IMG/VR virus record: IMGVR_UViG_2534681674_000028
Span: 1-40,960 of that record
Length of the DNA: 40,960 bases
Direction: 5' to 3' (one strand)
DNA from: a virus
Taxonomy: Duplodnaviria > Heunggongvirae > Uroviricota > Caudoviricetes
Positions 18,001 through 21,000 of the stretch are shown in pieces; positions within the stretch are counted from its first letter, which is position 1, and every line of letters starts with the position of its first letter. The position numbers are program-made.

Positions 18001-21000
18001 GTAACAACGCCTGAATTTTTTCAACTGCATCAGGGGTGTCTTTCTCTACCCAGCGGAAAATTTTCTGGGTATTGCGAGCCAGGGCTTCCGGATGGCTGTC
18101 GTCATACAGTTCTGGGAACGTCATACCCAACTCAAAATAAGCCTGGGTTATTCCAGCTGCTGGAACTTTTTCGCCATCAGGACGCGCCCAGGCATTCATC
18201 GCCATGCGGATGTGTTCATGCTTGATTTTCATGAATCAAGCTCCTAGAAAGTGGTTGTGTTAACGTTTTGGTATCTTCCAGCTCGGGCCAAATATTCATC
18301 CAATCAAAAGGCCTTAGTTGCTGACGTGTAACTTCACCATTACTGGCTCGCTCAATAAGGACACATAACGATGCCCCTAACACTTGACCTTTACTCAATG
18401 CCTTTCTTAGATAACCGATGCTGGTACCACACTCACATGCAAACATACGCTGTTCATCTGACGAAAGAGAATTGAGAAATATTCTTAATTCTTCCATAGC
18501 TACTCCTTAGTAAACACAGCAAAGAATACCCACAGGTAAACAAAAGTCAATACCCACAGGTTGTTTACCTTGCGGTAATCGCATCTATTATTTACCTATG
18601 GACAAATATGAATTTAGACGACAGCAACTCATCAAAATTCGTGATGAGAAATGCGATGGTAAAGCGGTTAACGTGGCCAGAAAGATCGGGCGCGAGCCTT
18701 CTTATGTATCAAGAATGTTGTACCCAGAGGGGAAAAAGGGAAAAAAACGGATCGCTGATGATATGGTGGAGATTATCGAAGAGTCCTTTGGGTTACCCCG
18801 GGGATGGATGGATGGTATCGTTTCATCATCAACGAACACAGCCTCCAGTTATGAAACAAGGGTTCTAACGCCACGACAACGTATTTTTTTAGATCTCTTA
18901 GACGAACTGCCAGAAAGTGAAGCGGATAAATTATTAAAAACTCTTGAAGAGAAAAAACAGTATTACAATATGATCTACGAAGAAATCCGTAAAAAGAAAG
19001 CACAAAACGCATCATAGCTCACCAAACAACTAGTCACCAGTTAAGACACCGCAAAAAATTTACCCATGGGTATTTACTTTTTAAATACCTATGGGTATCC
19101 TTCTTTTCATACCAACCCACCCCGCCCCACAGAATGCAGGGCAATACTTCGAGTTACCAGGCAGTGGTCAGGGGTTAAGTAGCCAGCCCGAGGCGTAAGA
19201 ACATGACGGCAGGGTTCAACTTTAATAACTATGCAGCAGGTTTTTGTTCCGCTACCCCGGCGTTAAGGGGAAATGAGGTCAGCATGGATACTATCGATCT
19301 TGGCAACAACGAATCTCTGGTATGTGGCGTGTTTCCCAATCAGGACGGCACGTTTACCGCGATGACGTATACCAGAAGCAAAACGTTTAAAACTGAAGCT
19401 GGCGCGCGTCGCTGGTTAGCCAGAAACACTGACTGATGAGGTTGACGATGGAATTTAAAGATTTACCTCCTTCAATCCAGGAGATTGCAGCACACACACT
19501 TCGTCATCGTCTGAACGAACTTGAATTGGAATCGGTAACGAAAAAAGACACTGATAATATGGCTCGTAATGTGCGCGATGCGTTTACCGGATTGTATTTC
19601 TGTGCGTCTATAAATAAACACGACTCAGAGAGTGTGGCAAATAAAATTGCAGAAACGACAGCGCAAAACATCAATACGAAACCAACGGAAGAAGAAATTG
19701 ATCAGTTTGCTCATGATGCTGGTTTAAAAAACAAGAAAGAAAAATCGCCATATGCGGGGAACATGTTTGTTTATGACAATCTCATCAGAATTCGTGGCGA
19801 AATTCCGGCGGAATACCTGGCAAGAGTCCATCAGGCATTGCTTAAAAATTTGGAAACAGAATTATTTGATGGCAACACTAACGGTTTCTTCATGGTATCA
19901 GGCCTTGAGAAAGACTGGGATGCAGAAAAACGCTGGAATGTTGCTACATGGTTATTCAGTAACAGAGCCGCTGCACTGGAAGCTTCGGCATGTATTTGCA
20001 GCCTGTTCTTAACAGACCACAAATATAATCTGGATGTGTACAGTTATATTTACGCTGAACACGGTCCACTCTGGATTGACTGGTAATTATAAGGAAACAC
20101 CAGCAGGGCCGCGGCGACCAACAGAACGATTAAAATCAATAATGCCATTATAAAGGACATTATTTAATTTATCGTCGAATGCTGATTCTGTGAGCCTCAA
20201 CTCTGAATGAGTTTTTAATAACCCTGATTGCCTGAGTTGATTTACCAGGCATTCAATCTGTTTTTCAATAAGCGGATTTCTTTTTTTGTTTGGCATTTTA
20301 TCCTCCATTGAGGTTCTGGGTTAAAAATGGAGACCAACACGCTGTCACGTGTGGTCGTGCGCCGGACACGGATAAGAATCCGGTACTGACAGTTTACTGA
20401 AAGGATATTTCCCTGAAAAGTCAGTGCATAACGCGAAAGCGTACGGCGAAGCTCTTTCCCTTAGAAGGCTTGTCGTTAGATTTCTTCGAACGTGCGCTTC
20501 CGGTTGTGGCACTCCGCGAAATGGCGCGGCGGTAAGTATGGCGGGGTTATTCCTTCCCCATTGAGGACACCGGGTTGTCAGGTTGACCATACGCTTAAGT
20601 GACAACCCCGCTGCAACGCCCTCTGTTATCAATTTTCTGGTGACGTTTGGCGGTATCAGTTTTACTCCGTGGCTGCTCTGCCGCCCTTTTTAAAGTGAAT
20701 TTTGTGATGCGGTGAATGCGGCTAAGCGCACGCGGAACAGTTAAAACCAAAAACAGTGTTATGGGTGGATTCTCTGTATCCGGCGTTAATTGTTAACTGG
20801 TTAACGTCACCTGGAGGCACCAGGCACTGCATCACAAAATTCATTGTTGAGGACGCGATAATGGAAACGTTATTACCAAACGTTAATACGTCTGAAGGTT
20901 GTTTTGATATTGGTGTTCTGCTCAGTAACCGGGAGTTTACTGAAGATGCCATTAACATGAGGAAATATGAGCCTTATCTGCTCAATGATAATTCCATACT

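Follow-up and report, generated by a model that had tools for sequence, protein, structure and literature searches.

How is a lambdoid prophage released from a repressor that lacks a LexA-type cleavage domain? The question is raised by the immunity region at positions 18498-19100 of a 40,960-bp stretch of viral DNA (IMG/VR record IMGVR_UViG_2534681674_000028, positions 1 to 40,960; hereafter the window), which is part of an Escherichia coli chromosome bearing a lambda-like prophage with a Qin/Rac-type early region. Analysis of the window and of related loci suggests, with a probability that we put at roughly three in four, that the locus is a lambdoid immunity switch in which a non-cleavable, chimeric repressor acts at right (OR) and left (OL) operators and is released by an antirepressor or spontaneously.

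Putative operators and promoters of the switch

A gap of 100 bp separates the cro-like gene (18216-18497, minus strand) from the divergent repressor gene (18598-19017, plus strand). An initial annotation of this DNA had placed direct repeats in the gap and palindromic sites after the repressor gene, and both are there: AATACCCACAGGT occurs in two exact copies (18525-18537 and 18549-18561) 24 bp apart within the gap, and TACCCATGGGTA and TACCTATGGGTA follow the repressor gene at 19061 and 19086. Repeats and palindromes are the same operator motif, because all of them carry the palindromic core TACC-N4-GGTA, of which every OR and OL site is an instance. Exact copies of this core number six in the window (41 kb), against an expectation of 0.22, and none of 100 shuffled sequences gave six. 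A third OR site (18566-18577) had been overlooked, so that the intergenic region holds three sites, not two; the OL pair, spaced 25 bp, begins 44 bp past the repressor stop codon. In the two operator sets of the initial annotation we recognize OR and OL, laid out as is standard for lambdoid immunity regions; they are no oddity. The putative operators are as follows:

18527-18538: OR1, TACCCACAGGTA; exact palindrome, overlapping the spacer and -10 hexamer of PR
18551-18562: OR2, TACCCACAGGTT; one mismatch (GGTT), abutting the -35 hexamer of PR
18566-18577: OR3, TACCTTGCGGTA; exact palindrome, overlapping the -35 hexamer of PRM
19061-19072: OL2, TACCCATGGGTA; exact palindrome, directly upstream of the -35 hexamer of PL
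19086-19097: OL1, TACCTATGGGTA; exact palindrome, overlapping the spacer and -10 hexamer of PL

A candidate fourth OR site over the repressor start codon (18593-18604, TACCTATGGACA, two mismatches) was rejected, being without conservation at other loci.

Comparative conservation is the strongest evidence for these sites as putative operators. Six loci whose repressors have a common N-terminal domain (those of the window, phage mEp043, a Yersinia prophage, a metagenome contig, a Salmonella prophage and a Pantoea prophage) were compared with three control loci whose repressors have other N-terminal domains (phage Tritos, Qin DicA and Gifsy-2). The six span five genera, and half of them encode short repressors and half S24 repressors. 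Sites about 72 and about 32 bp before the repressor start codon, the positions of OR1 and OR3, are present in all six; in Pantoea, where the annotated start adds 4-5 residues to the protein, the distances to it are 61 and 21 bp, but the sites occupy the same columns of the alignment. At the position of OR2, 47-48 bp ahead of the start codon, a one-mismatch scan picks up a third site in three of the six (window, mEp043 and metagenome contig); the left half of this site, CAATACC, is invariant in all six, its right half variable. The left operon of each of the six is also preceded by two sites 25-26 bp apart, at a distance from the repressor stop codon that depends on inserted genes and ranges from 44 bp in the window to 1,943 bp; in mEp043 the equivalent of OL1 overlaps the annotated PL. 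The proteins encoded at the cro position are 52-71% identical across the six loci. No such motif sites occur at these positions in the Tritos, Qin DicA and Gifsy-2 control loci. Because the OR sites, the OL pair and the Cro proteins are conserved in loci with the same repressor head and the sites are absent from the controls, Cro, OR, repressor head and OL travel together as one specificity cassette.

The operators lie over divergent promoter-like hexamers, with the second set at the left operon, an arrangement that agrees with the lambdoid OR/OL architecture as far as sequence can tell. The candidate promoters, and an RNA structure formed by the OL pair, are:

18550-18545 (-35, TTGACT) and 18528-18523 (-10, TATTCT), minus strand: putative PR-like promoter with a 16-nt spacer; 9/12 in a consensus scan
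18564-18569 (-35, TTTACC) and 18586-18591 (-10, TATTAT), plus strand: putative PRM-like promoter; 9/12 in a consensus scan
19073-19078 (-35, TTTACT) and 19096-19101 (-10, TATCCT), plus strand: putative PL-like promoter with a 17-nt spacer; recognized by eye, 8/12, under the threshold of the scanner
19061-19107, plus strand: hairpin of the OL pair, a 16-bp stem followed by a U-rich run; terminator-like match, -23.4 kcal/mol, z = -5.2

The geometry of PL relative to OL1 parallels that of PR relative to OR1, and PL matches the annotated PL of mEp043. The predicted start of the PRM transcript falls approximately at the A of the repressor ATG (18598), and no Shine-Dalgarno sequence lies ahead of that ATG; these two features predict a leaderless repressor mRNA, the layout of lambda cI and of paaR2 (PMC8630535). 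The locus resembles lambda in its three OR sites over divergent PR and PRM, in the 24-bp spacing of OR1 and OR2, in an OL that fronts the left operon and in the predicted leaderless repressor mRNA; it differs in having two OL sites instead of three, 15 bp between OR2 and OR3, a 12-bp operator core and a repressor without an S24 domain, which thus would not undergo RecA-mediated cleavage.

Two more exact TACC-N4-GGTA palindromes, 24 bp apart, are found outside the prophage (27994-28005 and 28018-28029), directly after the end of an IS629-type insertion sequence (27968) and about 50 bp before TTAGTATAAAAAGC (28080-28093), which resembles the lambda attachment (att) core. The fragment that carries them belongs to an island of type III secretion system effectors (its neighbours in other genomes are espM1, nleG, nleF and nleH), and is similar in part to the ybhB-ybhC (att-lambda) intergenic region. 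These palindromes could be a relic operator pair or the arm sites of a recombinase.

Head and tail of the repressor

The repressor is laid out as follows:

residues 1-72: N-terminal helix-turn-helix (HTH) domain
residues 73-88: disordered linker
residues 89-139: C-terminal helical hairpin

The initial annotation had described a 139-aa repressor with an HTH and without an obvious autocleavage domain, and length, Pfam, dipeptide content and an AlphaFold2 model all bear this out. No Pfam family matches the protein at E<=0.1, hence no Peptidase_S24; no Ala-Gly or Cys-Gly dipeptide occurs anywhere in its 139-aa translation; and it ends at residue 139, whereas its S24 homologues have 219-242 aa. The model is all-helical with no beta domain (mean pLDDT, the per-residue confidence score, 83) and comprises four helices in residues 3-63 with the HTH at 23-40, a linker in which pLDDT falls below 50 at residues 77-87, and a hairpin of helices 92-103 and 106-137, with block-mean pLDDT of 83-90 over residues 91-130. 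The S24 domain that had been named as the feature to look for in the C-terminus was thus detected neither by domain search nor by structure prediction. A search of PDB sequences gave nothing significant (best E=0.078). Foldseek matched the protein best to 5d50, a Rep-Ant complex from a phage of Salmonella, but weakly (E=2e-3; TM score 0.46/0.38), and otherwise to generic XRE-type HTH proteins; this result was used only as support for the HTH head.

Head and tail of this protein have different relatives. Over residues 1-72 the protein shows 65-82% identity to the heads of S24 repressors of 221-242 aa, among them mEp043 cI, to which the window repressor is 65% identical over residues 1-86 (E=2e-38); the similarity stops after ...LPRGWMD (residue 72). 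Among the 120 best homologues, 79 are Peptidase_S24 proteins of 219-242 aa that match residues 1 to about 86 alone, with up to 82% identity, and the closest 30 matches include full-length homologues of 135-145 aa, frameshift variants and fragments, with S24 in none; full-length homologues were found in Escherichia, Salmonella, Serratia and Yersinia. mEp043 cI and the related S24 (LexA-family) repressors thus share with the window repressor the N-terminal domain, the operator motif, the OR geometry (about 72, 47 and 32 bp), the OL pair and the Cro partner, but they continue into a Peptidase_S24 domain, whereas the window repressor passes at about residue 73 into a linker and a 50-aa helical hairpin. 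This tail resembles that of DicA: residues 89-134 align with DicA residues 84-129 (33% identity, 61% positives, BLASTP E=2e-7) and fall on positions 81-131 of the NCBIfam DicA model (E=1.9e-5). The module L-x-P-x4-LLxLFxxLPExE...EEL is common to the window repressor, Gifsy-2 GtgR and the repressor of phage Tritos, whose tail is identical at about three-quarters of positions, judged by eye from the alignment, and whose head is of an unrelated XRE type. A full-library search with the 54-residue tail returned 45 clusters at E<=1e-3, in which the module is almost always the extreme C-terminus of proteins of 120-180 aa; in the 36 tail-bearing proteins scanned (the window repressor and 35 of the 45 clusters), an HTH_3 head was found 28 times and an S24 domain not once.

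The repressor is accordingly a natural chimera with the head of the S24-repressor family and a tail of the DicA/GtgR class, and the position of the junction within the predicted disordered linker would fit recombination of a head module with a tail module. In size, HTH head, divergent cro, lack of an autocleavage motif and C-terminal module it agrees with the short non-cleavable class (GfoR/GtgR/DicA), of which it would be a member by every feature that can be read from sequence.

More specific identities were tried and rejected. The HTH head fits a repressor of the LexA/S24 type (lambda cI, P22 C2, mEp043 cI), but the Peptidase_S24 domain and the Ala-Gly/Cys-Gly site are absent. Identity with RacR, suggested by the Rac-like gene order, fails in that BLASTP against K-12 RacR gives a best E of 2.3 and the RacR model NF049929 is not matched, K-12 RacR itself scoring 244.6 bits on that model. 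Full membership of the DicA family (NCBIfam NF007257) fails at 24.5 bits against a cut-off of 101, with the C-terminal 50 residues alone aligning. The protein is thus neither an orthologue of DicA or RacR nor an S24 repressor.

The operator assignment and the chimera each have a simpler rival. The palindromes after the repressor gene might be an intrinsic terminator alone and no second operator set, as the stable hairpin of the pair, followed by UCCUUCUUUU and matched by a terminator scan, would allow; any two adjacent similar palindromes can pair, however, each OL site taken alone fits the OR consensus, and in the five other loci a pair of the same motif lies 113 to 1,943 bp past the repressor stop codon, always fronting the left operon and not a gene end, with the mEp043 pair overlapping the annotated PL. 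We therefore think it unlikely that termination is the sole function; a dual role is possible in the window locus, where the hairpin may double as terminator of the repressor transcript. Likewise, the 139-aa protein might have decayed from an S24-type cI whose protease domain disappeared in a cryptic prophage, and its C-terminal sequence would then mean nothing. The 65-82% identity of the head to S24 repressors, the insertion sequence in the prophage and the frameshifted variants of the gene in databases (P0005, P0010-P0019) all lean that way. Yet the C-terminus is a conserved and confidently modelled hairpin homologous to DicA-class tails, full-length forms of 135-139 aa are conserved in the four genera named above (the 90%-identity cluster has 543 members), and 822 complete E. 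coli genomes have the region, so that decay is a very improbable account of this protein.

The frameshift homologues (P0005, P0010-P0019) begin in the +1 frame (MNLDDSNSS..., open reading frame (ORF) 18608-18868) and rejoin the repressor frame near the GGGGAAAAAGGGAAAAAAACGG tract at 18741-18757. Either the gene has decayed in some genomes, or these variants stem from errors in sequencing a homopolymer.

The shuffling of heads and tails among lambdoid repressors is an established idea, and current understanding is not overturned by the present case. The new point is a modest one: a single specificity cassette occurs with either an S24 tail or a DicA-type tail. Our literature search found no paper describing one cassette with either kind of tail. 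The repressors with S24 and DicA-type tails would constitute a natural homoimmune pair acting on the same operators, usable to test the role of the C-terminus in induction mode and in cooperative binding. A broader version, which we offer as conjecture and consider rather doubtful, is that the cassette circulates in enterobacterial phages with two unrelated induction modules, one self-cleaving (S24) and the other a DicA-type tail that answers to trans-acting antirepressors resembling Rem or GfoA from co-resident prophages. If it were true, the same operator geometry of 24-25 bp would be served by two structurally unrelated oligomerization domains, and the present prophage, which lacks an antirepressor of its own, would be induced only by cross-talk in polylysogenic strains of enterohaemorrhagic E. 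coli (EHEC).

Possible routes of induction

With a tail of the DicA/GtgR class and no S24 domain, the repressor should not be open to inactivation by RecA-stimulated self-cleavage, a route that we consider excluded. From the sites, their statistical excess and conserved positions, the domain homologies and the lack of S24, we infer the following mechanism. The repressor, presumably a dimer held together by its C-terminal hairpin, would bind palindromes of 12-14 bp (A-TACC-N4-GGTA-T). In the three-site OR, over two back-to-back promoters, OR1 and OR2 would cover the PR of the cro-like, cII-like and replication genes, and OR3 the -35 hexamer of the repressor's own promoter, from which the predicted leaderless transcript would start; at OL, the two sites would lie over the leftward promoter that serves the DUF1391-dicF-dicB-exonuclease-xis-int operon. 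Competition from the cro-like protein at the same operators would be expected to make the switch bistable. Release would most likely follow either the binding of a small antirepressor of the Rem/GfoA type, which a co-resident prophage would provide in trans, or spontaneous switching of the DicA/DicC kind.

Known systems offer precedents for both. The Gifsy repressors of Salmonella remain uncleaved after mitomycin C and are inactivated by small antirepressors encoded in a LexA-controlled dinI-antirepressor-irsA unit, some of which act across prophages (PMC3121763). In E. coli K-12, Rem, whose gene sits in Qin between hokD and ydfU, derepresses the DicA-controlled dicBp 165-fold, and dicBp also fires independently of Rem, either spontaneously (about 1% of cells) or under urea or heat (PMC10448788). 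In CP-933P, PaaR2, YdaS and YdaT make up a bistable switch of the CI/Cro/CII kind; it has both OR and OL, its repressor gene is leaderless, YdaT is its CII analogue, and it is independent of the SOS response (PMC8630535).

The window locus shares features with each. Like DicA/DicC/Rem of Qin, it has a short non-S24 repressor (139 aa; DicA, 135 aa) divergent from a cro-like gene, two operator sites after the repressor gene that front a DUF1391-dicF-dicB operon, and a homologous C-terminal module; unlike Qin, it does not reach the cut-off of the NCBIfam DicA model and has no rem homologue detectable by tblastn in the window. GfoR, GtgR and GfhR of Gifsy-1, -2 and -3, the counterparts of the antirepressors GfoA, GftA and GfhA (PMC3121763), are likewise uncleaved repressors of about 136 aa, GtgR has the C-terminal LLxLFxxLPExE motif, and the left operon includes a recE-like exonuclease; overall identity is low, however (17% in the alignment), and the window has neither a dinI-antirepressor-irsA unit nor a convincing LexA box. 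With CP-933P of E. coli O157:H7 (PMC8630535) the window shares a non-S24 repressor divergent from a ydaS-like cro and a ydaT-like cII, an intergenic region of about 100 bp with several operators over back-to-back promoters, a second set at PL and a (here predicted) leaderless repressor gene, but the CP-933P repressor is of another family, acts at operators with a consensus of GTTTAGTAA-type repeats and heads a toxin-antitoxin operon, whereas the window repressor stands alone.

Because the tail is homologous to those of DicA and GtgR, non-cleaved repressors that are inactivated by small antirepressors, the suggestion of the initial annotation that induction may depend on an antirepressor or another route appears reasonable by analogy. 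Several observations nevertheless weigh against the proposed switch or its release by an antirepressor. With K-12 Rem, Gifsy-2 GftA, DinI, IrsA and STM1019.1n as queries, tblastn gave no match at E<=0.5 to the window, to the Tritos fragment or to the sister prophage (L001, L004), whose sequence is complete and whose immunity region is identical; none of 20 early-region ORFs scanned against PHROG, and none of the nin-region ORFs, matched an antirepressor family, phrog_340 (Rem) and phrog_4847 (GftA) included; and the four CTGT-N8-ACAG boxes of the window (8789, 11930, 26109 and 30186) include none beside a plausible antirepressor gene. Moreover, the C-terminal identity to DicA is only 33%, so that sensitivity to Rem cannot be assumed; the nin region of the prophage holds an IS629-type insertion, and the prophage may be defective and then needs no induction route; and the hexamers of PL are weak, with 8/12 consensus matches. 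As LexA boxes the four sites were rejected individually: that at 8789 is GC-rich in its centre and sits within the promoter of a ParD-like antitoxin gene, that at 11930 is inside a coding region, and those at 26109 and 30186 are outside the prophage.

The position at which related prophages carry rem was compared directly. In the ompW prophages of O145:H28 strains with DicA-type immunity, rem lies between hok and ydfU (e.g., 12039-14134 of L015, PPompW_EH2246). In the sister prophage the same slot encodes a 131-aa lipoprotein and no antirepressor. In the window it is taken up by a gene pair of the ParDE type, an IS629-type element and a 77-aa ORF, the last no more than the C-terminal end left over from a phrog_660 protein.

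The rem homologue of an O145:H28 ompW prophage is 71% identical to K-12 Rem, and in PPompW_EH2201 the gene is interrupted by IS629. Published inducibility data on ompW prophages (PMC8112680) were not applied here, as they concern DicA-type PPompW prophages, which have a different immunity region.

It may be, then, that there is no dedicated inducer, and that the switch flips only stochastically or under general stress through instability of the repressor and competition by Cro. Such behaviour would accord with the lack of a detectable antirepressor gene in the window and the sister prophage, and there are published cases of dicBp being induced without Rem and of bistability that does not involve SOS (PMC10448788, PMC8630535). 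The retention of rem by related DicA-type ompW prophages argues instead that this class normally uses antirepressors, and antirepressors that act in trans from other prophages are equally documented (PMC3121763). As a complete account of induction we regard the absence of any dedicated inducer as a minority view deserving attention; when an antirepressor acting in trans is weighed against switching that is purely stochastic or driven by stress, the odds seem to us about even.

Membership of the non-cleavable, antirepressor-type class would predict that DNA-damaging antibiotics do not induce the prophage directly and that induction could hinge on other prophages in the same cell. The prediction concerns an immunity region that controls a prophage with the cell-division inhibitors DicF and DicB and that is found in about 15% of complete E. 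coli genomes (822/5,426 at >=80% coverage), including many EHEC strains.

Genomic setting and other elements

The prophage is a Qin-like lambdoid integrated at ompW of E. coli, and the 1.3-kb stretch around the immunity switch is 100% identical to strains 2011C_4247 and 2013C_3653. The cro-like gene heads the rightward (PR) operon, and the repressor is labelled 'hypothetical protein' in RefSeq (WP_000362153.1, from a 100%-identical locus). Since the left operon contains DicF and dicB, the repressor plays for a dicBF operon the part that DicA plays in Qin. The genes of the region are:

15900-16646, minus strand: DnaC-like gene
16653-17741, minus strand: replication initiator gene
17807-18232, minus strand: cII-like activator gene of the YdaT family, 141 aa (Pfam YdaT_toxin, E=7e-10; PHROG 163 'CII-like transcriptional activator', E=3e-45)
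18216-18497, minus strand: cro-like gene, YdaS-like, 93 aa (Pfam YdaS_toxin, E=9e-6, under the gathering cut-off; PHROG 35, E=5e-23)
18598-19017, plus strand: immunity repressor gene, 139 aa (PHROG 5736 'transcriptional regulator', E=6e-70)
19284-19436, plus strand: DUF1391 gene, start of the repressed left operon (Pfam DUF1391, E=5e-29)
19436-20086, plus strand: gene for a 216-aa protein, left operon (RefSeq annotation of the 100%-identical locus)
20635-20686, plus strand: DicF small RNA, left operon (Rfam, 75 bits)
20861-21049, plus strand: dicB, left operon (RefSeq annotation of the 100%-identical locus)
21327-23789, plus strand: RecE-like exonuclease gene
from 23854, plus strand: xis and int, adjoining the split ompW

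The untranslated stretch from OL and PL to the DUF1391 gene (19109-19273) is 88-98% identical in several phages with differing immunity genes and could be a conserved leader or a nut-like element of the left operon.

An element of the IS629/IS3 family is present three times in the window (9899-11210, minus strand; 26657-27968, plus strand; 30567-31883, plus strand), the copies being 96-99% identical and each having an ALIL frameshift pseudoknot (Rfam). The first copy interrupts the nin region, where the 77-aa remnant of the phrog_660 gene is left at 9623-9856. Within the same minus-strand nin region, genes for a ParD-like antitoxin (ATG at 8856, end at 9112) and a ParE-like toxin (9118-9417) lie on the plus strand, and their promoter region contains at 8789 the perfect palindrome CTGTTGTCGTCAACAG, which fits the LexA-box pattern but is GC-rich in its centre. 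Downstream of the Q antiterminator region, Rfam identifies two small RNAs of EHEC prophages, AgvB (anti-GcvB; 4063-4124, plus strand) and STnc100 (4125-4333, minus strand), together with a tRNA-like match at 4453-4512.

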